From a virus (taxonomy: Duplodnaviria; Heunggongvirae; Uroviricota; Caudoviricetes), in IMG/VR virus record IMGVR_UViG_3300028549_003773: a DNA stretch of 64,000 nt, one strand, 5' to 3'. This document shows positions 7,080 to 34,171 of the stretch, in pieces. The position numbers were made by a program, and so were the translations under genes. The notes below the pieces were generated by a model that was not told where the DNA came from, did no database searches, and saw nothing but the letters and a program-made list of their open reading frames with translations. Position 1 is the first letter of the stretch, and every line of letters begins with the position of its first letter.

Positions 7080-7082
7080 GTT

Positions 7083-7816: not shown

Positions 7817-7874
7817 TTTTATAATATGTATTATACCACATTTAAACTGAAAGTCAACAAAAAAGGAGAAAAAA

Positions 7875-8956: not shown

Positions 8957-9116
8957 ATAGTACAACAATTATAGTAGAAAAGCAGTACAACAATTATAGT
9001 AGAAAAGCAGTACAACAATTATAGTAGAAAAGCAGTACAACAATTATAGTAGAAAAGCAGTACAACAATTATAGTAGAAAAGCAGTACAACAATTATGGT
9101 AGAAAAGCAGTACAAA
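8957..9116. repeat. tandem direct repeats, 25-bp unit AGCAGTACAACAATTATAGTAGAAA x ~6 (iteron-like)
   Basis: exact head-to-tail copies read directly; last copy has one substitution (attatGgtag); array ends 28 bp before the RBS of the ORF at 9145. Confidence 0.9.
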
Positions 9117-9144
9117 AGAAAAAAATAAAAAGAGGAGTGATGCT

Positions 9145-9549
9145 ATGTTCACTACTAGTAAGTTATGTTCTATCTTTAACATTAAATTATGTAAGTTAAG
9201 GATGTGGTTGAATAATGACTACGTTAGGTATTCTGTTGGATCTCCTGGGCAAGGTATGAAGGGGTATTTTGATTATAAAGAACTTCTCATAGCCGCGCTT
9301 TTTATTTATTTAATAGATGAACTGGGTATGTGTAGAGATAATGCCAAAGTTATCACAGGGGATTTGCATTATTACCCGCGAGAATTTTTTGTAGTAGATA
9401 GTACTATATATTATAATAAAGAAGTAGGTATATGGAGTAACAAAACTGCTGTTCATATACCAAAAGAAAATAAAATTGTACTTACTATACCTTTTTATAT
9501 TATAATAAATAAGTACTTAAATGACTATAAGGAGCAATACTATGTCTGA
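9145..9549 (+). CDS. hypothetical protein
   Basis: 134-aa ORF with RBS aagaggagtgatgct before the ATG. Confidence 0.5.
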   Translation: MFTTSKLCSIFNIKLCKLRMWLNNDYVRYSVGSPGQGMKGYFDYKELLIAALFIYLIDELGMCRDNAKVITGDLHYYPREFFVVDSTIYYNKEVGIWSNKTAVHIPKENKIVLTIPFYIIINKYLNDYKEQYYV

Positions 9550-11390
9550 CAAAAGGGAAGTAGATAAATTAGAAGACAACATTAAGTACAAAGCTAAGAT
9601 GGAGATTTCATACTTTTGTAAAAAAGGAGCTCTACTTACTGGTAAATTTATTAAAAAAAATATACCTTTTGATGTATCTCACAGGCAAGGAATAGATGCT
9701 TTTTTCAAGAAGATCGTCAACTGCAAAAAATAAATAATAATAACAACATAGGAGCACAACAATGTCAATAGAAGCAATTATAAAGTTTAAAAAGCAAATT
9801 AGCAAGGTATTGCATGAAGCATCTACTAGCCTATCATACAACGGTTGTAATGATATACCAGATTCTTTTTGGGAGGGACTTACAGAAAAAGATAAATGTT
9901 TTCTTATTAATGAAGCTGTTATGGAAGGCTTAATAGATAAAGATTCTGGTACTTGGATTGCTGATTCTACTGTTGCTGAATTATTTTCTAAATGGTTTAA
10001 AGAGTTAGAGAGTGAATCTGATTCTGTTGAAAATTGGTTAAAACATTTTGATTATTAACTTTTAGCCTGCGCAAATAAAATATAAGGAGAATTATTATGC
10101 CTTTCGCAGATATTGCAATAGGAATATTGATTATATTTTGGTCACTGGGCATGCCTATGCTCATTTACTTGGATACAGACATTAGGGCAGTTATAAAAAA
10201 AATGAGTAGCACTGATCATTTGGCTATGTTTGGTGTTTATCTAATAGTTCCGATCATTTGGTCATGCGTGATATTTATTAAGTAGTAATACTATTAGCTT
10301 ATAACTATTAAATAATTAATTATGAGAGTATAATGACAACTTTTATATGTGTATTATTATTGTTTTTTCTTTTGAACATACCTTTGTCAGCAGCATTATT
10401 ACAGTACTGTAAGTATACCACTAATACTTTCATTAAGTTTATTTTTGTATTATTTTTTATAGGTATTCAATATTTAGCTTTTACAGTTTTTTCTGAAGCT
10501 TATTTAAAATATGTTCATTAACACTTTTCCAGCCAGCACAAATAAAATTAGTACAAAAGGAGCATGCATATGAACACACGTTCTGATACATATCTTAATG
10601 CTTGTGAAATTAAAAAGAGGTTTGGTGTTGCTGTTATACGTAAATGTTTATGTACTTCTATTAGACTTAATGATAGTTATTGGATTAAAGTTTATTCTAT
10701 TGCTTTAAATATTAGATAACATTCTGGTCGTTATTCCTCGCCCGCGCAAAAATTATAAGGAGAACTATTATGCTTCTACAAACTAAATACAACATAGGTG
10801 AAACTATAAAGTTTCATCCGTTTGGAAAAATGGGCCTTACAAAAACATATTGATCAGTTAGGTGATTTTTTAACCAGAGAAGAAGCTATGAAAATTGCTA
10901 TCACCGCCGGGCAAAAAGTTGATATAGAACGAGGTTGTGGTGGATTATCACACATGTTATTCAGTGAAGGACTTTATTAAAATAATACTTGAGAGGTGAA
11001 ATATGCTAATTTCTACAGCTACAAAAAATGAGCACACTAGAGGTAAGTACCCATGTTTAATGATAACTACTGATGGTTTAATAGTATTATTCTCAGACAA
11101 GGGAAAAGGTACAGTAGTGCATACAGAATCGAATACAAATTATATTTTAGGTACCTATGGTTCATATTGGTCCATGGAAGCATTTAAACCATATAGTGGA
11201 AGAGTAACTATAGAATAAATAGTAATTAATTAGTAGTAAATTACCATTAATTAGTAGTAGTAATATAAACCAGTTGTAAAGTACCATAATTCTGCATCAA
11301 AAATACTGTTGTTACACATAGTTACATACTTGTTACATAACTGTAAAAAATTGCATAGTAATAAACAAATATCTTAAAAAGGAATTTACA

Positions 11391-12062
11391 ATGAGTGAAA
11401 TTGATTTTTGCAATCGGCCTAGAAAAAGAAATATTGAGACATATAATGCTTCTTTAGTAACTTCAACTGGTGGTTGGTTTGGCTTGACTGCAAACAATGA
11501 TGAATGGCATTATGATACATACAAAAGAATTCTTAGAAAAGATTCACCTTTTGTAATAGTAGATAAAGATCCAGTAATAGTTAAAGGCATTAATGAACGT
11601 GCTAAAATAAGTCAGACAGATATTACAACACATTGTGGAGATCTTTTTGAAGTATTAAGATCATTAGAACGACCGGAAGTTAGAGTACCATTATTTACTT
11701 ATGGACATTTTGATTTTTGTTCAGCTGCATCATCCATGCAACATAATGCTAAATTAGAGCAACATATTTGGTGGCTCGCGCAATGGAATGACCTTAAAGA
11801 TACATTCTTCTTTGATATGACATTTTGTACGAGAAGGGATTTGTACAGAGGTTATGAAACCATTATGGACAAAACAATACCTCAAGCTTTTGGATCTTGT
11901 GGGTGGGATGTGTATAACCCAAAAACACCATATGCGATAAATGGTGGTATAAACCCACTTAAATTAACACAAGACCACGTATCTTTTATACGTAGATATG
12001 CAGACGGTAGTCCAATGGTAAATGCAATGTATAAAGTTGTAAGGAAATATAGCAATAAATAA
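11391..12062 (+). CDS. hypothetical protein
   Basis: 223-aa ORF with RBS aaaaggaatttaca before the ATG; no motif recognised. Confidence 0.55.
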   Translation: MSEIDFCNRPRKRNIETYNASLVTSTGGWFGLTANNDEWHYDTYKRILRKDSPFVIVDKDPVIVKGINERAKISQTDITTHCGDLFEVLRSLERPEVRVPLFTYGHFDFCSAASSMQHNAKLEQHIWWLAQWNDLKDTFFFDMTFCTRRDLYRGYETIMDKTIPQAFGSCGWDVYNPKTPYAINGGINPLKLTQDHVSFIRRYADGSPMVNAMYKVVRKYSNK

Positions 12063-12294
12063 TCACTTTTAAAAATAAAATGGTGAATTATAATGAACAA
12101 AAGATGGATACCTATACGAATTGCTGAACTTGATGGGTCTATAACGCAATATACTGTTTTAGCTAACTCTGATACAATTTCAATGGAAGAAGCTAAAAAA
12201 CTTATTCGTGATTGTGCGACTTTAGATGCTTTATTCCAGCTGCCAAAAAATTCCTTAATCAATTAAATAAATTATATAAATTAGGAGAATTATT

Positions 12295-12894
12295 ATGAAT
12301 ATTGCACCACGTGTAAATGATGTACTTGACCAATTTATGCTCGACCATTGCGTAGGTTCTTACAATGTAAGCAAGCCTGAGTTTAAAGTAAGAGCAAAAA
12401 GGTTAAAACTTCTATGTGACAAGTATCGTAAAGAACCAGAACCAGGAGATACGTTAATAAGTGCTGAACTGACTCTTAATGGTGGTTCATTCAATTTTCA
12501 TGTAATGGAAGAATTAACGCATGCATCAAAAGAAAATGAATGTCGTCATCATTTTCTAGCAGCGTCGTCAAAATCAGTTTTCATTGAACCACTGGATTAT
12601 CCAAATATTGAACCATATAATAGACAACCTCCTTATTATATTGGGTTAGGATACGCTCAGTTTGAAGAACCAGTATCATCAGAAACTTTAAGAGTGTACA
12701 TTCAAAAAGGAAATTACGAAGTTTCTTTATATACATCATTTGATGAGTATTATTTTAATGATTTCTGGTCTAATGTAACTATAGGTCTGGCAATCAAAAA
12801 AGAAGACATAGAAAGCTTCCTATTAAAACTTGGTAAAGTTTTAAATTTTGATGTAGTTATTATGGAACAAATAATTAACTTGTCCGAAAAATAA
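12295..12894 (+). CDS. hypothetical protein
   Basis: 199-aa ORF with RBS ttaggagaattatt before the ATG. Confidence 0.55.
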   Translation: MNIAPRVNDVLDQFMLDHCVGSYNVSKPEFKVRAKRLKLLCDKYRKEPEPGDTLISAELTLNGGSFNFHVMEELTHASKENECRHHFLAASSKSVFIEPLDYPNIEPYNRQPPYYIGLGYAQFEEPVSSETLRVYIQKGNYEVSLYTSFDEYYFNDFWSNVTIGLAIKKEDIESFLLKLGKVLNFDVVIMEQIINLSEK

Positions 12895-12905
12895 AAGGAG
12901 CACTC

Positions 12906-13130
12906 ATGAAAAAAATTAGTTTATTAATATTAAGTTTAGTTTTGTTTACATTAGTTGGTTGTAAAGATGATGATTTTCACACACCTGGCATACAAAAAGA
13001 AAATTTTAAAACTGTTTGTTTAGATGGTGTAACTTATTATATGTTTTGTGATGGTCAAGGTTACGTAGGTTATGGGTACATGAGTGTTAAACTCGATAGA
13101 AATAGCAAGATAGTACCTTGTTCAAATTAG
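12906..13130 (+). CDS. small lipoprotein (lipobox LVGC)
   Basis: MKKISLLILSLVLFTLVGCKDD has a signal peptide plus lipobox; RBS aaaaggagcactc. Confidence 0.5.
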   Translation: MKKISLLILSLVLFTLVGCKDDDFHTPGIQKENFKTVCLDGVTYYMFCDGQGYVGYGYMSVKLDRNSKIVPCSN

Positions 13131-14047
13131 TACAACTTATTAAAAACTAAAAAAATAGGTGACTATTATGCTTATTGGTTTTGTTATTGTTTTAAAAGTT
13201 AATAAGGATACTTTTGACTACTTTGCAATTGATCATACTAGTGGTGGTTATCCTTATTGGACACGTTTAGTTAAAAATGCTAAAATTTTTGAAACAAAAG
13301 AAGATGCTGAAAAAGAATTAACATCAGATGCGTTTACTAAAAATAGTATAATGACTGACGGTACTATGCTTCCTCCAAGTATGGTACAAAGTGGTGCAAA
13401 TATAAATTATAGAAAAAAATCAGGTACAGCAGAAATTGCAATTTCAAAACTTGAAGTAGTATTAGGTAATTGTATAGAATTTTTTGGAGAAATTAAAAAA
13501 CCAACAGGAATCACTTATGATAAAATTTATTTAATCTAATCTTTTATATTTCTTTAACCTGGTAACTATATGAATCTGTATAAAAAAGAACAGGCAGAGC
13601 TTAAGAAGAAAGAGTTAGTTGTTAAATGTACAGAAGATTTTGCTAAAGGCAATACTGTTAGAGCAATAAGAAATTATTGTGATGGTAATTCAACATCAAC
13701 ATTGGACGCTTTTAAATTACTTAGAACACTTTCTAAAATTAAAAAATGAGGTGTACCGTGTCTAATATGTATACTCAAAAAAATACCAATGTCGAAGCAA
13801 GGCAAGTAACTGCTGATAATTTAGAAGAAATTGAATTATGGTGCCTAGGTAGTATTAAGGGCACCATGTTACCAAGAGAGCAGAGAGCAATTGACATCTG
13901 GTGCCAGTATGCTGATTCAGAGTTTAGAGCGGAAGTAGGAGATTATATTTTACATGATAAAGACTATGATTTATGGTCAGTAATGAGTAAACGTCTGTTT
14001 AATAGATTATATTCTAAAGTTTCTTAAAAGCTGAAATGATTGATTAG

Positions 14048-14245
14048 TTGATAGGAGCAGATATGTCGGCATTCAAAAAAAGAAAACAGGAACGAAAAGA
14101 TTATTTTGATAAGTTTGTGTTTGGTTGGAAAGAACGGCCATGTACAGCTTGTAATGGATCTGGATACTATGACCATAATGGTAGCCCTCGTTGTGGTTCC
14201 TGCGACGGAACAGGAAAGGAAAAATACAAACCAAATGATGAATAA
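14048..14245 (+). CDS. small protein with DnaJ-type CxxCxGxG zinc-finger repeats
   Basis: CTACNGSG ... CGSCDGTG. Confidence 0.45.
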   Translation: MIGADMSAFKKRKQERKDYFDKFVFGWKERPCTACNGSGYYDHNGSPRCGSCDGTGKEKYKPNDE

Positions 14246-15365
14246 GCAAGAGTTTGATGCACTTGAAGTTAAGCCTCAACGTGAGGGGTTTTATCTCGTT
14301 ACAATGTTTCAGTTTGCTAAATTGAAGACTGAACATCCTGATTATATTAAGGATTGGCTTCAATTTAAAGAAGAAGAATGGGATTACGGCGGTTACGCTG
14401 GTAATTGCTACGTATGTTTCATACATGCAAGAGATGGTATATAATAGTTTAATTATTGCACAGCCTTCCAGGCGTCAAATTTATTTACTTGTTATACTGG
14501 AGAAAACAAAATGAGTAAAACAATGCAGCGCAAAATATCAGCACGAAATGAAAAGCACAGAAGATTTTTACACGGAGCGAAACAAGCGAAAGCACAACTC
14601 GAACTTTGTAAAGATGAGTTATTTGGTTGCTCATTAGAATGGTATCCAAGGTGTATGGCATGGCGAGCAGGCTTTTTGAAGAATGGTGGAAAAAAGTTTT
14701 GGTAGTATAACGTGCGAATAACCTGTAACTATTTTTTAAAAGGAGATACATGATGTGGAAATTTACTTGCTACAATGGCACTGTTTGGACAAGCGGACAT
14801 GTTTTTCTGTTTGAAGCTATTGAATCGTTCATGCATGCAACTAATTTGCATACTATGGATATTAAAAAGATAGAAAATTTAACACAATAGGTAAAGTATA
14901 TGCCAGAACAAATATTTAAGTATGCCGTAATATCACACAAAAGAGTTTTCTATAGTCTATGCACAAATGAAAAGCAAGCATTAGAACTTATTGAAAAAGA
15001 AGTACATAAGGGTTATATAGTGAATGACTTCACAATACTCTATGCCGAACATGGTTTAAGGTCATTAAATTGCTCAATGACACCAAAAATTGAACAACCA
15101 TAATATACTTATGAATCATTTAATAAACATCTCATTTACATACGAAGGAGTTAGGTATAGTTCTAATCATCAAGTAGTGCGTCTTAGTGAAGACAACAAG
15201 CCAAGGTCTAAAGATCATGAGGATGATTTAAAGTTTTCTATGTATCGTAGATTAACTAATGTTGGGGCTTTACTGCCGGAGCATAGAGGTTTAGATAAAT
15301 GTCAAGCATGTCTTCTTATAGAAAACTTTCAAATAACAATAAAAATATAATAACTTGGTGAGACT

Positions 15366-15782
15366 ATGAAACGTATTGTGGTTATTCTAATGTTTATTTT
15401 TGCTTTTTCTGCTATTAGTGCTCAAGCAAATTGGATAAGTAATTTTTATAAAACTTACACAGGGAAAGGTATTGATTACGCAGTAGGCGATGCTTTAAAA
15501 GAAGGCAAAAGTCCAGAAGAAATTGTTAAAATAGGTATAATAATTGATGGTCTTAGTTCTCAGGAATTAATAAGGGCACTCTACTGTGAAGGAGCTAAAG
15601 GGGATGATATTAGAGCCGCAGCCAAAAAGTTTGATATATCTGAAAAGACTTTAGTAACAGGTTATAAAAAAAATATCGATGAATGTTATAAAAAAACCAG
15701 CGAAAGTATAAGCAAAACATACAGTAGTGTTTATGCTGGAAGAAATTTACCAAATGTGAGTCCATCTAAGTTCAAAGAATAA
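15366..15782 (+). CDS. secreted hypothetical protein
   Basis: MKRIVVILMFIFAFSAISAQA is a signal peptide. Confidence 0.5.
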   Translation: MKRIVVILMFIFAFSAISAQANWISNFYKTYTGKGIDYAVGDALKEGKSPEEIVKIGIIIDGLSSQELIRALYCEGAKGDDIRAAAKKFDISEKTLVTGYKKNIDECYKKTSESISKTYSSVYAGRNLPNVSPSKFKE

Positions 15783-18738
15783 ACACATTTATAAATTTTG
15801 TTAAATGAAGGAGTAAGTAATGAACAAGAAAAGTAGAAAAAAGAAGAAAACTAAAATTATAACCTGTAGAATACCCTTACCACCTTTAACAAAATTTCAT
15901 AGTCCTGAAAAAAAGAAATATAAACGGATTAAAAATATAAAACCGGAGGATGATTAAATGTATGAACTGTTGATATTAGGAACATTAAAAATATTTACAA
16001 TAGTCGTATTTGTTTTGTTAGTAATGTTTATACTTGAACTTAACCTTTTAAACAATATAAACAAGTCAAGTACATACATACCAGTTTGGTACAAAGATAC
16101 TAAAATGTACTATAAATGGTTTAAAGAGAATGGTAATACAGCTTTATATGTAAAGATTTTTAAAAGATATTATAGAATTTCAAGGGAGTTTAAAACAACT
16201 TTAATAGCTGATTTAGAAAACAACATAGACAAAAAAAGTATAAAATTGTATGTATTTTATATCTTATATGACCTCTTAAAAAATAATTTATATACTAAGG
16301 TAAAATAAATGAAACCAATAAAAATAATTTTTTATTTATTGAAGATGTTTATACTGGGTATATTTAAAAAGCAGAAAAAGAAATATACATTAGATAATTT
16401 GTATGAATTAAACGGTACTAAACTTCAGTATGTTTCAACAGATTTATGCATGCCAGTTTATATAGCACAAATTAGTAAGGAAGGCATATCTTTAGCTGGT
16501 AGATGGTATGATAAATATGACAAAAAATATGAAGATAAAGACTCATTAATTTTTTGTATCAATAATAAAAATCATATCGCAGCAAATACTTTTAATGAAA
16601 AGATATACTTAGAAAAAATAAATTATGTAGTTAACACAGGGGTATTATTCTTTAATAACGCAACAATTAAAAATAGTTATTTTTTAAGTACTATAGATCA
16701 TTTATGTGCTTTTAAATAAAGTATTATTTTGTAAAATAATAAACAGGAGAATATTATGAATAATGAAGAATATTTTGGCCCAAGCCTAGTCGATATTGCT
16801 TATGAAATTATCAATATGCAAAAAGAAATAAACACTTTAAGGGCGGAAAACAAGAGATTATTACAAATAGAAAAAAAATACGATGAGTTATTAGCATCCA
16901 GTCTTAAACACAGTCAAACAATGGCTGGTAATATGCTTAAGTGCCTTCTTACTCCTGGAGTTACTAAGAGTCTTGCAGAAAATGGTACATTCACAAGTTA
17001 ACTTATTAAGTATTACTATTCTTTTAGAAGAATATGAGAAAGAAGGCAAACCTCATTTAAGATTAGGTCAATATTTTGTAGGAAATTATGTTAAATATTC
17101 TTGGCCTGAATTGTTTTATGAAACAAATCAAGAAAAAGCATTAGAGTCAATTTCTTCATATCTAAATCATTATCAATATACTGATGTTCTTCCACAAAAA
17201 ATACAATATTAAGGAGTATAGTATGAGTATAGGTATAGTTTCAGCAATACTTTTAGTACTGCTTGTTTTATCAAATTTATGGTGGTTATTTTATTACACA
17301 AATATTAATAATTATTGGCCTGCTGCTCCTTTAATTGTTATTTCTGTTACTGGTACATTGGTGGCTGTTGTTAGTATGTTTTATCATTTAATCACATTTA
17401 TTTATAAACACTGGTGATAAGAAGTATTTAACATGAAAATTTATAATATTAGAAGGTATGAAGAACCTTCCATGAGTTTTGAAACAAAATTTTATTCAAG
17501 TGAGTATGAATGGTCGTTCCCTGCAACAGATAAATTATCTGAAATAGTACAACGTATAGAAGGATACTATCCAAATGTTACATTACAGTATTCTTCAGGA
17601 GGTTTTAATGTTTTATCTGAAGGATCACATATTGGTACAATAAAACCAACTTATGCTAACAATAATAAAATAACTAACCTTCATAAACTATTCGCTAATG
17701 GGTGATTAGAATGAAAAAACTAATTCCAGGTTTTATTTTATGTTTACTGCTTTTTGCAATAATAGTATGTTTCTCAGTGTTTCATACAATTAGTAAACAT
17801 AGAAATGAAGAATTTAATAAGAAGTTAGCAGATATGATTCCAGGACAAGTATGGTTATGGACATATAAATATGATAAAAAAAACCCTTTTGAAGAAGAAA
17901 CTGTTGTAAAGTTTGTAGTTTTAGAAACTAAAGAAGGTTATGTAAAATATACATATACGTCAAATGTGTTAGACAATTGTACTCTTAAGAGTAAAGATTT
18001 TACTTTTTCAAAAGGAATACAAGATTTTGTTAGAAATAGTGTATCGTTTGAAAAACTTCCATGCAATTCTATACAATAATTTAAATATAGACTATAGGTG
18101 ATATTAAAATGAATACCTCAATTACTTTTGGTAGTGTAATTAAACTTAAGTTTCGTGGAAGAAAGCAACCATTTAGAATCCTTAAAGCTACAGACGTAAT
18201 AAAAGAAGGTGATGCTTGTACCAGCCCATTATTACTTCATAATCCTTTGTGTTACGAAGAAACATTGAAAAAATTTATTGAAAGAATGAGTAGTCTAAAC
18301 TGGGATCTTACTAATACAGGTAGATTTATGATGTCTTCCCAATCAATTGGTGAAACTCCTTCAGATGAACACACAGCGCGCATTTATATTAGACCACTTT
18401 ACAAATAAGGAACATGAGCATGTCTAAAGTAAAATTTAAAGAGTTGCAACTGATAGCATTTTGGAAGCATGATAAATTTCCATTTTGCTTGTACGGAAAA
18501 GTAACAGAAATAGACGAACGTGGGTACGTACAAACGATTGAATACGGCCCTGGAAGGTGTTTTAAACCAGTAATTATACTTCCTATAGTTGTAGCAGAAG
18601 CAGTAATTGGCAACTTGAAAAAGCTTGAAGATGAATATAACAAAGCACGTTCAGAAGTTGATAAGGAGTTTCGTATTACACTTTTAAAAACAATTCCATT
18701 CATGACTGATGTGTTAAAATAAAAACTTTGATTAAAAG

Positions 18739-19841: not shown

Positions 19842-20378
19842 ATGTGCACTTCAATAAATGATACTGATGTACTTTTAAAAAGAATGTCCGACTTAGAGGC
19901 GGCTAACCAAGCACTTAAAATGCAACTAAGATCAGCTAAAAAAGAAATATTTGATTTGAAGAAAGGAAAAACTACAACAAACGTTAAACATGTAAAATCA
20001 AGAGGAGGATACGAAAAATTTAAAAAGCTTACCATAGACGAAGTACTACCACATATTGGTGCCGGTGGTAAGCTGTTAGTTGGTATTATTGAAGGAGTAA
20101 AAATATATGTCAATACTTCGAGTGTGAGGTTGCAAACTTTTAAAAAGAACTTAGTGTGTGTAGGTTGTGGCATTCAAGGTCTTTATTTCTGGGCCGAATG
20201 CAATCCTGGATGCTTTAACTATCACCTAAACCTTTATGGAGTTAACGAGGCTGGTGACGAAGTACTAATGACAAGAGATCACATAATACCAAGGTCAAAG
20301 AATGGTGCGGACACTATTGGCAACATGCAAACAATGTGTCATAAATGTAACAATAAAAAAGGCAATAAAATACTTTAA
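19842..20378 (+). CDS. HNH endonuclease
   Basis: DHIIPRSKNGADTIGNMQTMCHKCNNKKG is a canonical HNH motif (D-H...N...H/C-x2-C-N); upstream CVGCG pair gives a Cys4 zinc site. Confidence 0.75.
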   Translation: MCTSINDTDVLLKRMSDLEAANQALKMQLRSAKKEIFDLKKGKTTTNVKHVKSRGGYEKFKKLTIDEVLPHIGAGGKLLVGIIEGVKIYVNTSSVRLQTFKKNLVCVGCGIQGLYFWAECNPGCFNYHLNLYGVNEAGDEVLMTRDHIIPRSKNGADTIGNMQTMCHKCNNKKGNKIL

Positions 20379-20616
20379 GGAGATTATCATGATTACTAAA
20401 AACGCTAAGATAATTATACCTAAAAATATTAATAAGTCAGATTACCTCGACTATGCCGCTAAGCAATTAAAAGAAGAGTGCGATAAAGGTTGGAAGATTG
20501 GTGGTATAATTTACTCCACAACAGAAGACAAAACTGTTGTTCTCTACATCTAATAAATTCAAAATTTAATTGGTATAAAAAATTAATAATTAAAAAAACT
20601 AAATAAGGAAAATATC

Positions 20617-21276
20617 ATGAAAAATATTATAAAAATAAGAGCTTTTGTTGCTATATGTGTAATTTTTGTATTATCGCTGGCTATGCTAAATACAGCAAAT
20701 GCTACAAATATCACAGTAGATTGGGATAAAGTTACAAATGTAACAACAACAAGTAAAGGTACATTAGGTACAACGGAGTTTGAATTAACAGTTGACTCTT
20801 CTGGAGTTTCTGTATATGGATACTGTATAGATCCATCACAAAGTATTAACAAAGGTAATTATGATTTTACTTTATCGTTATTGTCCGACCAAGGCGCAAA
20901 AGCTCCTCTATATTATAAAGCTGCTTGGCTATTGGATTCTTACGCCCCGGCTGGGAATGATGTGAGTAATAAAAAGGAAAAAAGCGCTGCAATACAAGGT
21001 GTACTCTGGACATTGTTAAATAACCCAGGGTATGCTTTGACAAATACAGGGTTAATAGGAAGCTATTTTAGCACTTATTGGGCAGCTGTGTCAGCAGTTA
21101 CTTTGAATTCATCAACAATTAATTATCTTAATACTCATTTTCTTGTTGCAAGAAACAGTAAAATACAAGATCTACTTGTATCTGATCCTAACCCAGTGCC
21201 TGAGCCAGCAACAATGCTTCTATTTGGTACCGGTATTTGTTTGTTATCGAGAATAAGAAGAAAAAATAGGAGTTAA
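20617..21276 (+). CDS. PEP-CTERM sorting-domain secreted protein
   Basis: N-terminal signal peptide; C-terminus PVPEPATMLLFGTGICLLSRIRRKNRS = PEP + TM helix + Arg-rich tail. Confidence 0.7.
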   Translation: MKNIIKIRAFVAICVIFVLSLAMLNTANATNITVDWDKVTNVTTTSKGTLGTTEFELTVDSSGVSVYGYCIDPSQSINKGNYDFTLSLLSDQGAKAPLYYKAAWLLDSYAPAGNDVSNKKEKSAAIQGVLWTLLNNPGYALTNTGLIGSYFSTYWAAVSAVTLNSSTINYLNTHFLVARNSKIQDLLVSDPNPVPEPATMLLFGTGICLLSRIRRKNRS

Positions 21277-21281
21277 ATAAT

Positions 21282-22067
21282 ATGCGATGGTTAAGTATTA
21301 TACTATTACTATTGTTATCTTTAGTATTTACTTTTGTAATTACTAAAGATAATAATGATGGTCTTCTATCAATAAGTGAACAGTCTACTGAAATTTCTGA
21401 TTTAAACATTAATGATTCACCTATAGATGTAGAACAGCTTGAAAGTATAGATAATAGTACAAGTAGTTATAACAATCGTTGGGTTGGGTTGTGTCCAAAA
21501 GATAGTATAAAATCAATTTACGATTTCAGGCAAACTGTAGAAAAAGACCCAACATTACAAAATCATTTTCAAGATTTCAAATGGGAAGAAGCGAAAATTA
21601 ATATTTTAAATAGTACAACTTACGCAAAAGTATCCCATAGATCTGGCTCTATAATAAAAGAAACAAAGAAAAGTATAACTTTACCTAAAGGAGATAAAAT
21701 TATAACTGATGGTAATAGAACAGTAAGATTTTTCTGTTGTAATGATGTTATTATACCAAAAGCTACATTGCCAGCTCCACCAAAGAAAATCAACAAGCCT
21801 ATGATAGCTGTGGAAATTCCAGAAAATAGCCTTGATGTAGTAAACGTAAATGCATATAATGACCAACCCTCCCTTAAAACATACTACAATTATCAACCAG
21901 AATATGTTTACAAAAGTCCAAGTAGTTTTATCGGTGGTAGTTCCTCTTCAGGGTTTTATCCTAAATTTTCACAGCCAACTGAGCCAACAGCAACACCAGA
22001 ACCATCAACATGGATGCTACTAGGAAGTGGTGCTCTATTGCTAAGATTTTTAAAGAAAAAATCCTAA
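21282..22067 (+). CDS. PEP-CTERM-like secreted protein
   Basis: N-terminal hydrophobic segment; C-terminus TATPEPSTWMLLGSGALLLRFLKKKS. Confidence 0.6.
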   Translation: MRWLSIILLLLLSLVFTFVITKDNNDGLLSISEQSTEISDLNINDSPIDVEQLESIDNSTSSYNNRWVGLCPKDSIKSIYDFRQTVEKDPTLQNHFQDFKWEEAKINILNSTTYAKVSHRSGSIIKETKKSITLPKGDKIITDGNRTVRFFCCNDVIIPKATLPAPPKKINKPMIAVEIPENSLDVVNVNAYNDQPSLKTYYNYQPEYVYKSPSSFIGGSSSSGFYPKFSQPTEPTATPEPSTWMLLGSGALLLRFLKKKS

Positions 22068-22660: not shown

Positions 22661-22837
22661 ATGGAAAATAAAGATAACAATCCTGTTACAGTAATTAAAA
22701 AGCCTTATTCAACCCCTAAAATTACTAATTACGGAGATGTAAGAGAGATCACTCTAAGTGCAGGTAATCATCACAATCATCATAAACATTGTGGTTGTCA
22801 TCATAATGGGCCATGCCCTCACGACTGTTTTTCGTAA
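22661..22837 (+). CDS. small His/Cys-rich peptide (58 aa)
   Basis: MENKDNNPVTVIKKPYSTPKITNYGDVREITLSAGNHHNHHKHCGCHHNGPCPHDCFS; abuts the stop of the preceding gene; RBS ggagatttaa. Confidence 0.4.
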   Translation: MENKDNNPVTVIKKPYSTPKITNYGDVREITLSAGNHHNHHKHCGCHHNGPCPHDCFS

Positions 22838-22980
22838 CTAATTTATGCTGAAAAAGATTAAAAAAGAACTTTTTTGTATAGTATTATTTCTAGTAAGCAT
22901 GTTTTTATACATAGTTTTTATGATTACACCTTATATTTATGGATTTACTTTTATTAAAATTATAAAAAATTGGTGACTAA

Positions 22981-23487
22981 ATGGGTACTGTGATTGTTGT
23001 CTTCTTTGCTATTGTTGTTATGATATGTTTTTATAAGGGTGTGTGTAATTTTTTTGAATATTACATAAAGAATGAGGCAGAGGTACCTCTTAACGAAAAT
23101 ATAGAAAAAGAAATTAAAAAAAATACGTTAGAGATAGATAGACTTAATAAAGAAGAAAGAGCAGAGCGCAAAAAAATCATAAAAGAAAATTATACGCACT
23201 ACTTAAAATCAGTTGAAGAGGAAAGATTAAAACTACAAGAACAAATAAAAAGGAACAACATACTTGCACAAAAACGTAGAAAAGAAGATCGTAGGAAAAA
23301 AGATGATACTTTTGATGATATAGCAGAATCTGTAATTATGTCTTCTGAGATATTTTCAACTACCAGTACGCAAGAAGATGAGTCAGCAAAAATCTTTAAC
23401 AATACACCAGACGGTTCTTTCGGTGGAGGCGGTTCTACCGGTTCTTGGGAATCATCTGACAGTTCAACTTCAAGCAGTAGTGATTAA
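22981..23487 (+). CDS. membrane-anchored charged coiled-coil protein with Ser-rich tail
   Basis: N-terminal TM helix; KEERAERKKIIKEN...RRKEDRRKKDD; C-terminal GGGGSTGSWESSDSSTSSSSD. Confidence 0.45.
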   Translation: MGTVIVVFFAIVVMICFYKGVCNFFEYYIKNEAEVPLNENIEKEIKKNTLEIDRLNKEERAERKKIIKENYTHYLKSVEEERLKLQEQIKRNNILAQKRRKEDRRKKDDTFDDIAESVIMSSEIFSTTSTQEDESAKIFNNTPDGSFGGGGSTGSWESSDSSTSSSSD

Positions 23488-25137: not shown

Positions 25138-25175
25138 ATTTTATAACCAATAATTTGACAAGACTAAATAATACC

Positions 25176-26291
25176 ATGATTTTAAAAATAGAAAAACCGT
25201 GTAATATTTACGCAGAAGTAATTGAATCAGGCGCTTTAGATCAATTTAAAGACGTTATGTCTAAAGATTGGGTATTACGTGGTGCTCTCATGCCTGACGT
25301 TCATCAAGGATACACAATGCCTATAGGAGGTGTAGTTCAAACCTTAGGTATGATAAGCCCTGTTTTTGTGGGATATGATATTGGATGTGGAGTCTGCGCT
25401 CAACTTACCACCTTTAATAAAGAAGAGGTATTTCAACTACGATACAAGTTGAAAGAAAAACTATATAATAACATTCCAGTAGGTCAAAATCATCACAATC
25501 GACCACAAATTTGGAAAGAATATCACACAATTCCTAAAACAGATTGGTATAATAAAATGTTCTGGGAAGACAAAGGGTTACACCAATTAGGCACTCTTGG
25601 TTCTGGTAATCATTTTTTAGAAATAGCTTATGATGAAAAAGATCGTGTATGGGTTACAGTACATTCAGGTTCTCGTCATATAGGGCATTCAACAGCAAGT
25701 TATTATATCCGTTTGGCACATCCTCAAGGAACGTTAGCAGAAGGAGCATATGCTCTTGATGTAACTACTCAAGCAGGCAAGGATTACATTCTTGACCTTA
25801 ATGCCTCATTAGCTTTCGCCCTTGAAAATCGTAAACAAATAGTAACAGCCACAATAGCTACTATCAATCAATTTGTAAAAGGGGAATCAGCAGGAGAATT
25901 AATTAACAGGAATCATAACCACGCCGAATCAAAGGATGGCATTCATTGGATACATCGAAAAGGAGCAACTCATGCCGAAGAAGGTATGATTGGTGTAATT
26001 CCAGGTAATATGAGAGATGGATCTTTTATTGTTATGGGTAAAGGAAATCCAGATTCATTGTTCTCTTCATCCCATGGTGCAGGGAGAGTTTACTCAAGAA
26101 AGAAAGCAAAGACTTTGTTTACTGTAGAAGAAGTCGAGCTAGAGATGGGAGATATTGCTGCAAACATTAATGCTGGTATGCTTGATGAATCTCCTGGTTC
26201 TTATAAAAACATATTTGAAGTGATGGAATTACAGAAAGATTTGGTAGAAATAATTCATCACGTCAAACCTATCATTTGTATAAAAGGATAA
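25176..26291 (+). CDS. rtcB: RtcB-family RNA 3'-phosphate/2',3'-cyclic-phosphate ligase
   Basis: MPDVHQGY, GYDIGCGV, GSGNHFLEI, HSGSRHIGH, NRNHNHAE, HRKGAT and SSSHGAGRVYSR match RtcB active-site motifs; track start 25155 is TTG, first ATG is 25176. Confidence 0.8.
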   Translation: MILKIEKPCNIYAEVIESGALDQFKDVMSKDWVLRGALMPDVHQGYTMPIGGVVQTLGMISPVFVGYDIGCGVCAQLTTFNKEEVFQLRYKLKEKLYNNIPVGQNHHNRPQIWKEYHTIPKTDWYNKMFWEDKGLHQLGTLGSGNHFLEIAYDEKDRVWVTVHSGSRHIGHSTASYYIRLAHPQGTLAEGAYALDVTTQAGKDYILDLNASLAFALENRKQIVTATIATINQFVKGESAGELINRNHNHAESKDGIHWIHRKGATHAEEGMIGVIPGNMRDGSFIVMGKGNPDSLFSSSHGAGRVYSRKKAKTLFTVEEVELEMGDIAANINAGMLDESPGSYKNIFEVMELQKDLVEIIHHVKPIICIKG

Positions 26292-30147: not shown

Positions 30148-30861
30148 ATGTCTTTACATGTCTGTGGTGACACACATTGTCCTAGGGATATCCATAAATT
30201 GAATACCACAGAATGGCCAGAGCAAAGATCGCTAAATAAAAATGATATACTTGTTATATTAGGTGATTGTGGCTTGATATGGGATCCTGATTGGTCAAGA
30301 GAAGAATTGCATTGGGCTAATTGGCTTGCTAACAAAAAATTTACAGTTTGTTTTATTGATGGTAATCACGAAAATTTCGCAAGATTAAATAAATTTGGTA
30401 CAGTTCCTTTTTACGGAGGAACTGCAGGAGTTGTGTTTGAAAATGAAAATGGTGTAGTATATCATCTAAAAAGAGGAGAAGTATACACCATTGAAAACAA
30501 AACAATATTTACCTTCGGGGGTGCTCAATCCACTGATAAAGAACGTAGAATTATTGGACGTAGTTGGTGGCCTGAGGAAGTTCCAAACTTCGCAGAAATT
30601 AATCATGGATTAGAAAATCTAGAAAAACATCACAATTGTGTTGATTTTATATTAACACATACTGCACCAACAAGTATTATTACTCACTTTAATTTTATAG
30701 ACGCAGCTATGAGAATTGATGATCCTACTTCTAGATTTTTAGAAGAAGTGGATAAAATTACACAATTTAAACAGTGGCATTTCGGCCATTTCCACACCAG
30801 CCAGCATAAAGACATGAAATATATTTGTCATTATAACTGGTATCCCTATAAATTATTTTAA
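30148..30861 (+). CDS. calcineurin-like metallophosphoesterase
   Basis: GDCGLIWD (GDxxDRG-like) and CFIDGNHENF (GNHE) motifs. Confidence 0.7.
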   Translation: MSLHVCGDTHCPRDIHKLNTTEWPEQRSLNKNDILVILGDCGLIWDPDWSREELHWANWLANKKFTVCFIDGNHENFARLNKFGTVPFYGGTAGVVFENENGVVYHLKRGEVYTIENKTIFTFGGAQSTDKERRIIGRSWWPEEVPNFAEINHGLENLEKHHNCVDFILTHTAPTSIITHFNFIDAAMRIDDPTSRFLEEVDKITQFKQWHFGHFHTSQHKDMKYICHYNWYPYKLF

Positions 30862-31396: not shown

Positions 31397-31588
31397 ATGC
31401 AAAAGTTTTTAAAGGTGTACAGTAGTGTAATTATATTAGTAGTACTTGCAGTATTTTTATTCGGGTTCGTAATACCTGTGCTAATATCAGCTAAAAGTAC
31501 TGAATTAGTTGTATTGGGTTTTTTGGCGGTGCTGGTATCAGTACCATTTTATATTTTGAGTATTTATAAAATTTATAAAGGAATTTAA
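31397..31588 (+). CDS. small two-TM membrane protein (NfeD-like partner?)
   Basis: 63 aa with two hydrophobic helices, directly upstream of the SPFH gene. Confidence 0.45.
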   Translation: MQKFLKVYSSVIILVVLAVFLFGFVIPVLISAKSTELVVLGFLAVLVSVPFYILSIYKIYKGI

Positions 31589-31592
31589 AAAA

Positions 31593-32444
31593 ATGAAATT
31601 TATGAAAAACTTTGTTTTTGTTGTATTGGCCCTTTTGATGACCTCAGCATGTTCTAAAGTTCCTGCTGGTTATGTTGGTATTAAAGTATACCTCCTTGGA
31701 GGAGAAAAGGGTGTAGAATCTGAGCAACTAGGAGTAGGTAGATACTATATTGGTATGAATGAGGATTTGTTCTTGTTTCCAACATTTACACAAAACGCTG
31801 TATGGACAGCCGATAAACGTGAAGGTAGCCCAGACGACGAATCTATTACCTTTCAAACAGTAGAAGGTATGAGCGTAAATGCTGACATCGGCATTTCTTA
31901 TGCCGTTATTCCTGACAAAGTGCCTATGATTTTTCAAAAATATAGGAAACAAATTGACGAAATTACAGATATTTATTTACGCAACATGGTTAGAGATGCT
32001 TTTGTAGCTATTGCAGCTTCTCAGCCTATTGAAAACGTGTATGGCGCTGGAAAAGCCGAATTGTTGAAACAAGTAGAGGAATCTGTGAGAAAGCAATGTG
32101 GAGATATGTTTATCATTGAACGTATTTATTTGATTTCTGACCTAAGACTTCCTAACGAAGTAGTAACCTCTATTAATAAGAAATTGGAAGCTACACAAAA
32201 AGCTCAGCAACGAGAAAATGAGGTTAGAGAAGCGAAGGCAGAAGCAGAAAAAGTAGTAGCCAAAGCCGAAGGAGAGGCGCGATCAATTGCTGTAGTAGCA
32301 GAAGCACAAGCTAAGGCAAACATAACGATAGCTAAATCAGTAACGCCTGAGCTTATTTCTTACAACGCAATCAAAACTTGGAATGGGCAACTACCTACTA
32401 CGATGATACCAGGAAGTGCCGTACCTTTTGTAAATGTTAAATAA
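31593..32444 (+). CDS. SPFH/band-7 (prohibitin/HflC-like) lipoprotein
   Basis: signal peptide plus lipobox LMTSAC; EAKAEAEKVVAKAEGEARSIAVVAEAQAKAN is a typical SPFH C-terminal coiled-coil. Confidence 0.65.
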   Translation: MKFMKNFVFVVLALLMTSACSKVPAGYVGIKVYLLGGEKGVESEQLGVGRYYIGMNEDLFLFPTFTQNAVWTADKREGSPDDESITFQTVEGMSVNADIGISYAVIPDKVPMIFQKYRKQIDEITDIYLRNMVRDAFVAIAASQPIENVYGAGKAELLKQVEESVRKQCGDMFIIERIYLISDLRLPNEVVTSINKKLEATQKAQQRENEVREAKAEAEKVVAKAEGEARSIAVVAEAQAKANITIAKSVTPELISYNAIKTWNGQLPTTMIPGSAVPFVNVK

Positions 32445-32839: not shown

Positions 32840-34171
32840 ATGAATGAATTAGAACTTTTAATCATCGACCGATTAGCTAACAACAATTTCGAAGTTTTCC
32901 TTGTAGGTGGTGCCGTAAGAGATAAAATTCTAGGACTACCCTATGAAGATATAGATTTTGCTACAAATGCTCGTCCTGAGCAAATCATCAATCTTTTTCC
33001 AGACAAACACATAGGTGTTGTAGGTAAAAGTTTCAAAGTAGTATATGTAGAAGGTGTTCAAATTGCTACTTATCGTAAGGATATTCAAAAAAAATTCTTC
33101 AGTGCTAAATATTGTGAACCAGTATACGCAGATAGTATATACGAAGATTTATGTCGTAGAGATTTGACTATCAACGCAATGGCAATCAACGCAATAACAA
33201 AAGAATTCATCGACACGCAGAATGGGGAAGTTGACTTACGTAATGGTGTTATACGTCTTGTAGGAGATCCTATTCAACGACTATGGCAAGATCCTAATAG
33301 GATAGTTAGAGCGTGCAGATTTGTAGCCAAAACAGAAGGGCATTTTCATAGGAAAACCTATGTTGCCTTATGTGAGTGTGCAGTATTTATTAAACGTCAC
33401 GTAGAGGCTGAAAGAATTCAAGAAGAGATAATGAAAGCTATGAAAGTTAATACACCTTCAATATTTTTTAGTTCACTACAATCAATTGGTGCTTTAAAAT
33501 ATATATTCCCAGCTATGGCTCGTTCTTTTGAACAAACAGGTGGTGAGTTTCATAAAGAGACAGTAGGTGAGCATTTGATGCTTGCTGGCGATGGAATACA
33601 TAAAAAATTTCCTGTGTTAAGACTAGCAGCTTTTCTTCATGACATTGGTAAACCAAAAGCTTTTCTTAAAGAAGATGATGGTAGTTTTAAAGCTCATGAA
33701 GCATACGGTGCCAAAATAGCTAAAAAGTATCTTACTGATTTGAAATTCCCTTCGGCAGTGATAAATGAAGTACATGGCCTTATTAATTCACACATGAGGA
33801 TCTGTAGAGGTTTAACACCTAAAGGTATAAGGAGACTACGTAAGCACTTATCTGACGATGGTGTCGATCCTCGCAGCTTTTTGAGGTTAAAACTCGCAGA
33901 TAGGTCAGCAAACTTGTATAGGTCTAGCACAGAGATTCAACCGACAAAAGAGTTAATAATTAATGCAGGTATCAGGTCAGTAGAAGACCCTGTGTTAACA
34001 TTAAAAGACTTAGCCATATCGGGTGGAGATTTAATAAAAGAATTTAATCTACAGCCAGGACCAATTGTTGGTAAAATACACAAAGCTTTGCTTGAGTTTA
34101 TAATAGAAGAAGGTGAAGAGTATAACACTTATCAAATTTTAAAAGATCAAGCCTATAAATTATTAGTTTAA
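32840..34171 (+). CDS. cca: tRNA nucleotidyltransferase (CCA-adding enzyme) with HD phosphohydrolase domain
   Basis: LVGGAVRDKILGLPYEDIDFAT is the Pol-beta head motif; DLTINAMA; HD-domain residues FLHDIGKP ... HEAYGAKIA. Confidence 0.8.
   Translation: MNELELLIIDRLANNNFEVFLVGGAVRDKILGLPYEDIDFATNARPEQIINLFPDKHIGVVGKSFKVVYVEGVQIATYRKDIQKKFFSAKYCEPVYADSIYEDLCRRDLTINAMAINAITKEFIDTQNGEVDLRNGVIRLVGDPIQRLWQDPNRIVRACRFVAKTEGHFHRKTYVALCECAVFIKRHVEAERIQEEIMKAMKVNTPSIFFSSLQSIGALKYIFPAMARSFEQTGGEFHKETVGEHLMLAGDGIHKKFPVLRLAAFLHDIGKPKAFLKEDDGSFKAHEAYGAKIAKKYLTDLKFPSAVINEVHGLINSHMRICRGLTPKGIRRLRKHLSDDGVDPRSFLRLKLADRSANLYRSSTEIQPTKELIINAGIRSVEDPVLTLKDLAISGGDLIKEFNLQPGPIVGKIHKALLEFIIEEGEEYNTYQILKDQAYKLLV

Follow-up and report, generated by a model that had tools for sequence, protein, structure and literature searches.

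Two adjacent PEP-CTERM proteins encoded on a phage-like genome: a predicted thioester-domain protein and a member of an uncharacterized Desulfobacterota family

Results

Two adjacent genes end in PEP-CTERM sorting signals

We analyzed a 64,000-nucleotide stretch of DNA from the virus record IMGVR_UViG_3300028549_003773, here called the window. Two open reading frames (ORFs) lie side by side on its plus strand. The first, p1 (positions 20617 to 21276; 219 amino acids), consists of a signal peptide, a predicted minimal thioester domain (TED), and a PEP-CTERM sorting signal. The second, p2 (21282 to 22067; 261 amino acids), has an N-terminal transmembrane (TM) helix or signal anchor, a domain of about 105 residues with three cysteines, a proline-rich low-complexity linker, and its own PEP-CTERM signal. 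Both genes run in the same direction, 5 nt apart, and each is preceded by a Shine-Dalgarno-like sequence. The original prediction had placed two adjacent ORFs at these positions, and the C termini that it quoted are exact. An HNH endonuclease gene (19842 to 20378, plus strand; 178 amino acids; PF01844, 44.9 bits; PF14279, 41.3 bits) is the 5′ neighbor of the p1-p2 cassette. Its description as immediately upstream was slightly overstated: the gene is indeed upstream, near p1 rather than strictly adjacent to it, because a 54-amino-acid ORF with no assigned function (20389 to 20553, plus strand) separates the two. This small ORF is a gene call on Logan contig L001 (3038 to 3202), an independently assembled contig that carries an identical cassette with the same neighbors.

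Substrates of the PEP-CTERM/exosortase system (EpsH, XrtA; TIGR02595/PF07589) occur in Gram-negative bacteria that produce exopolysaccharide (EPS) (Haft et al. 2006, PMC1569441). A PEP motif, a TM helix, and a basic cluster close both ORFs (p1, VPEPATMLLFGTGICLLSRIRRKNRS; p2, TPEPSTWMLLGSGALLLRFLKKKS), and AF2 models place the C-terminal helices at residues 198 to 218 of p1 and 241 to 260 of p2. TIGR02595, named beforehand as the refuting test for PEP-CTERM C termini, scored p1 at 24.8 bits (residues 194 to 217) and p2 at 18.2 bits (residues 238 to 261), both above the cut-off of 16 bits, and the assignment held for both proteins. With PF07589 (gathering score, 20.7), p1 reached 27.6 (residues 193 to 215) and p2 19.6, marginally below the gathering score; the p2 homolog P0006 scored 25.4. 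Including the stop codon, the signal of p1 spans 21193 to 21276 (plus strand) and starts 9 residues past Gln184 (see below) without a stalk; that of p2 (ATPEPSTWMLLGSGALLLRFLKKKS) spans 21990 to 22067 (plus strand). Since p1 and p2 are the only proteins with PEP-CTERM-like C termini among the approximately 112 predicted genes of the window, and since the pair is kept in a related contig (L009), the finding is not due to chance.

The p1 signal peptide (20617 to 20703, plus strand; residues 1 to 29) is of the classic Sec type, with n- and h-regions and an AxA site, and ends in ANA before TNIT. The alanines of this site, A27 and A29, are conserved in the closest relatives and invariant in alignment A1; the N terminus is modeled as a helix (residues 2 to 25). 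p2 starts with a single hydrophobic helix (residues 2 to 23), which may be an uncleaved signal anchor, as an AxA site is not obvious. Thus, of the two N-terminal signal peptides that had been predicted, the one in p1 stood, cleavage site included, and for p2 the export helix was found and its cleavage is uncertain. Both ORFs were scanned for internal TM segments, and neither contains one. The window has no Pfam match to an exosortase and encodes no polytopic exosortase-like membrane protein. Geobacter and Desulfovibrio, which belong to the Desulfobacterota, have EpsH/exosortase (PMC1569441), and both the p1 and the p2 families occur in Desulfobacterota, in agreement with the prediction of a host limited to an exosortase-bearing lineage.

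p1 has the motifs and predicted fold of a thioester domain

The core of p1 (20704 to 21186, plus strand; residues 30 to 190) contains Cys70, Gln127, Trp131, and Gln184. TEDs (PF08341) are found in Gram-positive TIE adhesins such as Cpa/Spy0125, SfbI, CpTIE, BaTIE, and SaTIE. A survey described them as present "exclusively in Gram-positive bacteria," nearly always LPXTG anchored and usually carried on stalks of isopeptide or ester domains (PMC4450167), and we took the motif definitions from the same work (Walden et al. 2015). The predicted thioester cysteine, Cys70 (codon read directly at 20824 to 20826), lies in Y69-C70-I71-D72, which fits [YFL]C-hydrophobic-hydrophilic. The cysteine is present in 116 of 116 relatives, preceded by Y or F in 110, and the acidic position is D or E in 112. 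The predicted thioester glutamine, Gln184 (21166 to 21168), lies in I183-Q184-D185-L186-L187, next to the strand formed by residues 186 to 189, and fits hydrophobic-Q-hydrophilic-hydrophobic-hydrophobic. It is invariant in a 50-sequence alignment and present in 106 of the 116 sequences of the larger set, the remaining 10 being alignment end gaps. A third motif, I126-Q127-G-V-L130-W131 (IQGVLW), lies within a helix of residues 119 to 135, and both Q127 (20995 to 20997) and W131 are found in 116/116 sequences. It corresponds to the central-helix motif TQxx-hydrophobic-W, which is common, not universal, in TEDs; in the p1 family, L, A, V, or I stands in place of its threonine. Gln127 (AIQGVLW) was also considered as the thioester glutamine and was rejected, as its motif is that of the central helix and the thioester glutamine is Gln184 (PMC4450167).

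The model of p1 contains the β-sandwich or barrel and the three-helix subdomain that define the TED fold and, on this basis, p1 is a compact TED-fold protein. The relationship is visible only through structure comparison and near-threshold Pfam matches. Against a PF08341 gathering score of 22.0 bits, p1 scored 21.9 (0.1 bit below), P0004 21.5, and P0003 18.8, and three other relatives (P0016, P0022, and P0029) have precomputed PF08341 matches. A sequence-profile search of the PDB with the p1 family profile retrieved no TED, only spurious matches. At least 116 full-core members of the family were found, and the cellular relatives nearest to p1 are from Desulfobulbaceae. By its sequence features, p1 is a TED-domain protein and not a TIE protein, because LPXTG and a stalk are absent and a PEP-CTERM end is found instead. 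It also differs from the TIE adhesins in belonging to a Desulfobacterota-type family and in having a core of only about 160 residues, with a thioester that is predicted.

p2 belongs to a Desulfobacterota family found beside lapD/lapG in Desulfobulbales

The conserved core domain of p2 (21444 to 21761, plus strand; residues ~55 to 160) has the pattern ..SS..RWVGLCPKDSI..HFQDFKW..SHRSG..LPKGDKIITDGNRTVRFFCCND. It is modeled by AF2 with a pLDDT of >95. A PDB search with the p2 family profile gave spurious matches only, and no match to a known fold or family was found for the core. The family comprises 290 representative clusters at an E value of ≤1e-10. In a 40-sequence alignment, G69, C71, D89, L92, D143, G144, R149, C152, C153, and N154 are invariant, as is the PEP motif. 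Homology thus assigns p2 to an uncharacterized Desulfobacterota family of PEP-CTERM proteins. Our scan of reference genomes for p2 is biased toward the bacterial-type clade because it used a subset in place of the diverse 40-sequence alignment.

In Desulfobulbales, the p2 homologs adjoin lapD/lapG, and this synteny is conserved. Moreover, 18 of the 19 bacterial Desulfobulbales relatives carry PAAG or PSAG at a site that separates the folded domain from the anchor, compared to 0 of 17 members of the phage-rich p2 clade. The motif resembles the [T/A/P]AA[G/V] site of adhesins under LapD/LapG control (LapA, BrtA, RtxA, and CdrA); CdrA has been proposed, without mapping, to carry a LapG site close to its C-terminal end. 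The LapG substrates known so far are giant adhesins of the T1SS or TPS type; proteins like p2, in contrast, have about 250 to 300 residues and are PEP-CTERM anchored. As a working hypothesis, a LapG link may hold for the cellular members of the family; it is correlative only, because most of the P[SA]AG motifs are PSAG and not the canonical di-alanine form. The p2 of the window has neither a LapG-type [T/A/P]AA[G/V] motif nor a lapDG neighbor, and the same holds for the entire phage-rich clade. We also looked for a LapG site in the N-terminal linker of p2 and found none; the motif lies past the core domain, in the Desulfobulbales-type clade only. The literature that we searched contained no paper connecting LapG with PEP-CTERM proteins. 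We further considered p1-p2 as a conserved bacterial operon and rejected it, given that the p1 core and p2 were never within 10 kb of each other in 11 bacterial loci; for this reason, the two proteins need not act together.

The genes are long-term residents of a phage-like genome

The window looks like part of a novel large phage that is uncultured. Of its 112 genes, 102 (91%) are on one strand, the coding fraction is 0.92, and many genes are ORFans. PHROG matches include a phage helicase (E value, 9e-67), a CCA-adding enzyme (1e-61), and a phage RNA polymerase (RNAP) β subunit, and the window also encodes phiEco32-type COOH-NH2 ligases and a tRNA. Alternatively, the DNA could come from a cell with a low-GC genome, from a plasmid, or from some other extrachromosomal element, or the cassette could be host DNA that misassembly joined to it. 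Such origins would fit the lack of structural genes (capsid, terminase, and tail) within the window, past whose ends a search for them recovered short contigs only, and the lack of PHROG matches for ten further large ORFs. They would also fit the database searches: INPHARED gave no match by blastn of the region or by tblastn of p1, p2, and the RNAP-like gene, and IMG/VR no exact match to a 38-mer of p1. In addition, the first 8 kb of the window differs in GC content, and the first gene there is also found on separate short contigs. Nevertheless, the gene organization and the phage-type genes described above, together with the identical cassette and neighbors on the independently assembled L001, argue indirectly for a viral genome, and we consider a nonviral origin highly improbable.

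The window has a GC content of 31%, far below the 44 to 60% of the bacterial loci that carry homologs. Base composition also bears on the origin of the cassette. The GC3 values of p1 (0.21) and p2 (0.18) match the phage background, unlike those of the bacterial homologs (0.38 to 0.52). As the flanking genes have the same GC3 as p1 and p2, a chimera is ruled out. The genes had been predicted to be phage encoded, and their composition bears this out: p1 and p2 are genuine and long-standing residents of a phage-like genome. Promoter-like sites around the cassette are no more common than in shuffled sequences, and no terminator-like sites were detected; no moron unit is delimited by such sites.

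Both families recur in other phage-like contigs

Members of the TED family were found in four further phage-like contigs, and members of the p2 family in five, and the phage copies retain the four TED residues without exception. L009 contains the same p1-p2 pair, with p1 and p2 each just 43% identical to the window copies, behind an HNH gene that is 77% identical to that of the window (blastp). The block of HNH, p1, and p2 is the sole part common to L009 and the window. Upstream genes are unrelated, and at the position of the small ORF, L009 has an 88-amino-acid ORF unrelated to the 54-amino-acid one. Such differences in the flanking genes are consistent with an insertion-type cassette. The HNH protein might therefore be a homing endonuclease that carries p1 and p2 along as passenger DNA of no benefit to the phage, which would agree with the shared block and with the much better conservation of HNH than of its cargo. 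This is very unlikely in our view. At an identity of just 43%, neither ORF is disrupted in either phage, all catalytic and structural invariants are kept, and the codons are fully ameliorated, which indicates long-term purifying selection. Furthermore, as judged from sequence comparison, both families recur in unrelated phages that acquired them independently and lack such an HNH neighbor.

In L016, the p2 gene lies two genes 3′ of a capsid-like ORF, and the gene after it encodes a small multi-TM protein. In L032, the p2 gene comes after tail genes, at the late/early boundary; a second scan of IMG/VR for p2 again returned only the L016 contig. These positions, and the bitopic layout of p2, with a TM helix at each end, a periplasmic domain, and a proline-rich linker, are what might be expected if the proteins had an envelope or lysis role independent of exosortase. 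The C-terminal helix and basic tail would then be a plain anchor and p2 a periplasm-spanning factor for lysis or its timing. We regard this as improbable. The chromosomal homologs of p2 in bacteria, where the synteny with lapD/lapG is conserved, are not genes for lysis. The PEP motif does not vary within the family and exceeds the cut-off of TIGR02595, and neither an endolysin nor a holin gene adjoins p1-p2 in the window.

Discussion

The combined evidence leads us to consider it rather probable that p1 and p2 are accessory genes that depend on the exosortase of the host and alter the adhesion of infected cells. According to our model, both proteins would be exported by Sec, and their C-terminal helices would retain them in the inner membrane. 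Because the window encodes no exosortase, processing would fall to the host enzyme, and the products would be displayed on the surface of the infected cell or in the exopolysaccharide matrix. p1 would act as a single stalk-less TED. Its buried thioester, between Cys70 and Gln184, would be attacked by an amine nucleophile of the target, giving a covalent isopeptide link. This chemistry is modeled on the Gram-positive TED adhesins; with the domain only 9 residues from its anchor, an external target may be out of reach. p2 would be a diverged, phage-type member of a family whose Desulfobulbales genes lie next to those for LapD/LapG, a protease switch under c-di-GMP control. As p2 itself lacks the P[SA]AG motif, it would not be released via LapG. 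The net effect would be a change in adhesion or aggregation that keeps cells in flocs or biofilm close to new hosts, masks the surface against further phage, or both. Several results weigh against this model: the GC content of the window, well under that of the bacterial loci with homologs; the absence of capsid, terminase, and tail genes from the window and of matches among deposited phages; the Pfam scores of p1 (TED) and p2 (PEP-CTERM) just short of threshold; and the lack of p1-p2 neighbors in bacterial loci. A moron role in decorating the host surface, as originally predicted, is what we infer for the pair. The TED fold of p1, the LapD/LapG link of p2, and the recurrence in unrelated phages were not part of that account.

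A different benefit to the phage can be envisaged, in which adhesion is not the selected function. Phage substrates would flood the exosortase and replace or deplete the native PEP-CTERM coat, and adsorption of superinfecting phage, or of progeny to lysing cells, would be blocked. p1 and p2 are bona fide exosortase-type substrates in a phage without an exosortase, and their identity between the window and L009, low compared to that of HNH, fits fast-evolving surface genes in an arms race. The late/early boundary occupied by p2 in L032 is a frequent site of exclusion and conversion genes, and an ORF downstream of the cassette (22981 to 23487) has a weak SieB-like match (E value, 0.008). However, this match is far under the threshold, and the strict conservation of the four TED residues in phages points to selection for thioester chemistry and not mere occupancy of the pathway. 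We therefore find this explanation unlikely.

Returning to altered adhesion, the recurrence of both families in unrelated phages makes it probable that phages with these genes modify the cell surface of their hosts, which would be bacteria of sediments. A more specific scenario is possible, and we put it forward tentatively. Phages of sediment Desulfobacterota, with Desulfobulbaceae-like hosts, would have repeatedly captured a covalent TED adhesin and a LapG-insensitive surface module, the host version of which would be released via c-di-GMP, LapD, and LapG, and would lock infected cells in aggregates or biofilm through lineage-specific sorting. If this is true, TED chemistry would be established in diderm bacteria, and PEP-CTERM proteins would be a new class of LapG-regulated adhesin.

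In its layout, the pair resembles cellular PEP-CTERM substrates: a C-terminal PEP motif, TM helix, and basic cluster are combined with an N-terminal export signal in small proteins that are present in more than one copy per genome and share little homology beyond the tail. In contrast to the cellular systems, p1 and p2 are on a phage-like genome that lacks its own exosortase and EPS locus. The floc protein PepA illustrates that one PEP-CTERM protein can turn EPS from soluble to cell bound; p1 matches the corresponding model, NF033554, weakly (23.4 bits; cut-off, 80). Phage morons, or lysogenic-conversion genes, for host surface proteins include lambda Lom and Bor, and such lambda-type proteins use the general Sec/Bam/Lol routes. 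Like them, p1 and p2 are accessory genes of a phage, carry export signals, and encode products that the host machinery would place in the envelope. They differ in relying on a specialized, lineage-limited sorting enzyme and in the lack of a detectable moron promoter or terminator. TIE(pLS20), a class II TED adhesin of the Bacillus subtilis conjugative plasmid pLS20, has an experimentally shown role in mating pairs. It is likewise a TED protein on a mobile element that alters the cell-cell contact of the host for the spread of the element, as is proposed for p1. Unlike p1, it belongs to a plasmid of a Gram-positive host, has 778 amino acids and CnaB-type stalks, and depends on neither sortase nor exosortase.

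By computational criteria, these results widen the range of the TED, known from Gram-positive proteins with sortase anchors, to a family of Gram-negative Desulfobacterota with exosortase-type anchors, so that the analogy between LPXTG/sortase and PEP-CTERM/exosortase would reach the cargo too. They also indicate, again in silico, that genes for substrates of a sorting enzyme confined to certain lineages occur repeatedly in phages. Genes of the p1 and p2 types could serve as a host-range marker and are a candidate means of altering aggregation in sulfate- and metal-reducing bacteria. For the poorly understood PEP-CTERM system, they offer two tractable starting points. One is a cargo whose covalent chemistry can be predicted, and the other is a family of cargo proteins that is genetically linked, by way of a candidate cleavage motif, to LapD/LapG and thus to c-di-GMP switching. 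In the literature that we searched, no paper linked TED and PEP-CTERM. Phage are not mentioned in the original description of the system (PMC1569441), and the sole virus-related mention concerned a virus-like integrative element of Dehalococcoides that carries a PEP-CTERM domain.

Two adjacent phage genes carry PEP-CTERM sorting signals

The original prediction described two adjacent PEP-CTERM genes directly downstream of an HNH endonuclease gene. Both open reading frames (ORFs) are real, and the C-termini quoted for them are exact. p1 (20617-21276, + strand, 219 aa) and p2 (21282-22067, + strand, 261 aa) are separated by 5 nt, and a Shine-Dalgarno-like sequence precedes each. Using TIGR02595 (cut-off of 16), the check suggested with the prediction, we obtained 24.8 bits for p1 and 18.2 bits for p2, both above the cut-off. 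With PF07589 (gathering score of 20.7), the scores were 27.6 and 19.6, respectively, that of p2 being marginally too low, and the p2 homolog P0006 reached 25.4. No other PEP-CTERM-like C-terminus was found among the approximately 112 predicted genes of the window. Signal peptides had been proposed for both proteins. p1 has a classic one ending in ANA, with the AxA site kept in its closest relatives; p2 has a single N-terminal hydrophobic helix with no obvious cleavage site and therefore may carry a signal anchor instead. The HNH gene (19842-20378; PF01844, 44.9 bits) does lie upstream, although a 54-aa ORF separates it from p1. The finding is real and its interpretation stands, within a richer picture than the one described.

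p1 is a thioester domain protein

p1 scored a marginal 21.9 bits against the thioester domain (TED) family PF08341, for which the gathering score is 22, and two of its relatives (approximately 30% identity) independently scored near the threshold over the same region. A profile search retrieved a large family of proteins of approximately 210 to 260 aa. Among the 120 matches listed, 116 have a near-complete core, and 114 of these 116 terminate in PEP. All three TED motifs defined by Walden et al. in 2015 (PMC4450167) are present in p1. The thioester Cys motif ([YFL]C-hydrophobic-hydrophilic) is predicted at Y-C70-I-D, and the thioester Gln motif (hydrophobic-Q-hydrophilic-hydrophobic-hydrophobic) at I-Q184-D-L-L. 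The central-helix motif (TQxx-hydrophobic-W), which hydrogen bonds to the Cys backbone, corresponds to I-Q127-GVL-W131 within helix 119-135. C70, Q127, and W131 are each invariant in the 116 relatives listed (116/116), and Q184 is found in 106 of them, the other 10 having alignment-end gaps. In both motifs and fold, p1 is a TED-domain protein, with a predicted thioester.

The PEP-CTERM signal begins 9 residues past Gln184, so p1 has no stalk. Lacking a stalk and carrying PEP-CTERM instead of an LPXTG anchor, p1 is not one of the Gram-positive thioester-isopeptide-ester adhesins. In a published survey, TEDs were exclusively from Gram-positive bacteria and almost always LPXTG anchored (PMC4450167); the PEP-CTERM/exosortase arrangement of p1 mirrors their LPXTG/sortase one. 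No paper in the literature collection searched joined "thioester domain" and "PEP-CTERM."

The cassette is long resident in a probable large phage

Of the approximately 112 genes in the window, 102 lie on the + strand; the coding fraction is 0.92. For most ORFs no matching family was found, and those annotated are of types usual in large phages: a helicase (phrog_16, E 9e-67), a CCA-adding enzyme (32840-34171; phrog_2244, E 1e-61), RtcB, a RuvB-like ATPase, and a single tRNA-Leu. Also of this kind are a 1,087-aa RNAP-beta-like protein that matches phage RNAP beta PHROGs twice and several phiEco32-type COOH-NH2 ligases accompanied by glutamine amidotransferases. Within the 64 kb, we found no gene for a capsid, portal, terminase, or tail protein, and the window had no match among GenBank phages or in IMG/VR. 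We therefore take it to be part of a novel large phage, from a region without structural genes; that it belongs to some other, non-viral element is very improbable. GC content is 0.39 to 0.45 over positions 1-8000 and approximately 0.31 in the remainder. Bacterial loci bearing homologs have a much higher GC content than the window. The first gene (658-1323) was found on separate short contigs (L030 and L031) and not on the 85-kb p1-bearing contig, and a NADAR plus DUF488 protein lies at 3072-3899, inside the higher-GC first 8 kb.

The cassette and its neighbors were assembled independently in a Logan contig (L001). GC3 is 0.21 for p1 and 0.18 for p2, within the 0.15 to 0.29 of neighboring phage genes and unlike the 0.38 to 0.52 of bacterial homologs. 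p1 and p2 are therefore long-resident phage genes, neither recently captured nor joined to the window by chimeric assembly.

Related genes recur on other phages

A related 3.3-kb contig (L009, 1151-3335) repeats the order of window positions 19842-22067: HNH gene, small ORF, p1, and p2. Genes upstream of HNH are unrelated in the two. HNH is 77% identical, whereas p1 and p2 are each 43% identical, reflecting either fast-evolving surface cargo or a recently moved homing endonuclease. In simple neighbor-joining trees, the two p1 copies are sisters, and their sister clade comprises Desulfobulbaceae bacterium A2 and two chromosomal genes (P0017 and P0028). This placement suggests a single acquisition of p1 from a Desulfobulbaceae-like donor, and a Desulfobulbaceae-like host is inferred from it.

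Two viral contigs (L012 and L013) and a 220-kb jumbo-phage-like contig (L034) carry TED-PEP-CTERM genes of independent origin. p2-family genes occur on L012, L016, L032/L033, and the phage-like contig of P0124. The L016 copy nests among Desulfobulbales sequences, and that of L032/L033 (an approximately 43-kb phage) sits between tail genes and early genes. Both families are found approximately 4 kb apart on L012; in the bacterial loci examined, they were never neighbors.

L012 (35 kb, IMG/VR) carries a gp32-like gene and three PEP-CTERM genes: p2-family (4615-5427), TED-like (9587-10291), and one of a different type (10288-10920). The next ORF (290 aa, 10917-11789) resembles thymidylate synthase by eye. 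Non-TED PEP-CTERM ORFs were seen on four further IMG/VR contigs (L010, L011, L014, and L015). In L016 (66 kb; 32-2794), the large terminase is split by an intein that includes a LAGLIDADG homing endonuclease domain. In L034 (5615-8795), two genes of the DruA family, a Druantia defense component, lie directly upstream of the TED-PEP-CTERM gene, and a glycosyltransferase, epimerase, and methyltransferase block lies approximately 4 kb downstream.

Desulfobulbales p2-family genes lie beside lapD and lapG homologs

The p2 family is uncharacterized. All its members in reference genomes came from Desulfobacterota (Desulfobulbus, Desulfopila, Desulforhopalus, other Desulfobulbales, and Geobacter/Geobacterales), in a scan biased toward the bacterial-type clade because its patterns were drawn from that subset. 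A LapD homolog (LapD_MoxY_N, GGDEF, and EAL) adjoins the p2-family gene in 7/7 Desulfobulbales loci (for example, L017, 870-4704), and a LapG homolog (Peptidase_C93) is present wherever the contig reaches far enough. This adjacency is kept across at least three gene arrangements. A P[SA]AG motif lies four residues downstream of the CCND core, and its distribution tracks clades: 18/19 in the LapDG-linked Desulfobulbales-type clade, 1/10 in the Geobacterales-type clade, and 0/17 in the phage-rich clade, window p2 included. The canonical LapG site is [T/A/P]AA[G/V]; in CdrA, a site was proposed near the C-terminal end but not mapped. This correlation suggests that p2-type proteins of cells may be surface modules anchored by exosortase and released by LapG, possibly a new class in Desulfobulbales, and that phage versions would evade LapG control.

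A model for cassette function

According to our model, p1 and p2 would be exported via Sec and, since the window encodes no exosortase, processed by that of the host. Displayed at the surface or in the extracellular polysaccharide (EPS), p1 would capture an amine-bearing target covalently through its thioester, and p2 would be retained constitutively; as a result, infected cells would adhere or aggregate differently. The model has two supporting precedents: overexpression of PepA, a small PEP-CTERM protein, converted soluble EPS to cell-bound EPS and restored flocs, and plasmid pLS20 carries a TED adhesin promoting cell-cell contact. Receptor masking or competition for the exosortase is a less probable reading of the cassette; an envelope or lysis role independent of exosortase and hitch-hiking with the HNH gene are both improbable. 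The cassette extends known kinds, namely, PEP-CTERM cargo, TED adhesins, and phage surface-modifying accessory genes.

Other genes in the window

Approximately 900 bp downstream of p2, a 168-aa protein (22981-23487) with an N-terminal transmembrane (TM) helix, Lys/Glu-rich coil, and Ser-rich tail weakly matched SieB (superinfection exclusion; E 0.008), far under threshold. Before it (22661-22976), a 58-aa ORF with a His/Cys-rich tail (HHNHHKHCGCHHNGPCPHDCFS), whose product may bind metal or be a modified peptide, is directly followed by a 43-aa single-TM peptide. Positions 7875-17700 hold a series of small ORFs with 1 or 2 predicted TM helices each. An SPFH/Band 7 gene (31593-32444) is preceded by a 63-aa two-TM ORF (region 31397-32444), an order like that of NfeD-SPFH pairs. 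RtcB ligase (25155-26291), a calcineurin-like phosphoesterase (30148-30861), the CCA-adding enzyme, and tRNA-Leu (63211-63293) form a tRNA repair and maintenance set, which suggests a counter to anticodon nucleases. Finally, positions 39399-60003 hold a dense cluster, interleaved with the RNAP-beta-like protein and helicase: phiEco32-type COOH-NH2 ligases (39399-40310, 50669-51772, and 57633-58931), Peptidase_C26/GATase proteins (40339-41121 and 41972-42652), a GFAT-like amidotransferase (55784-57640), and a RimK-like S6 glutaminyl transferase (58936-60003).
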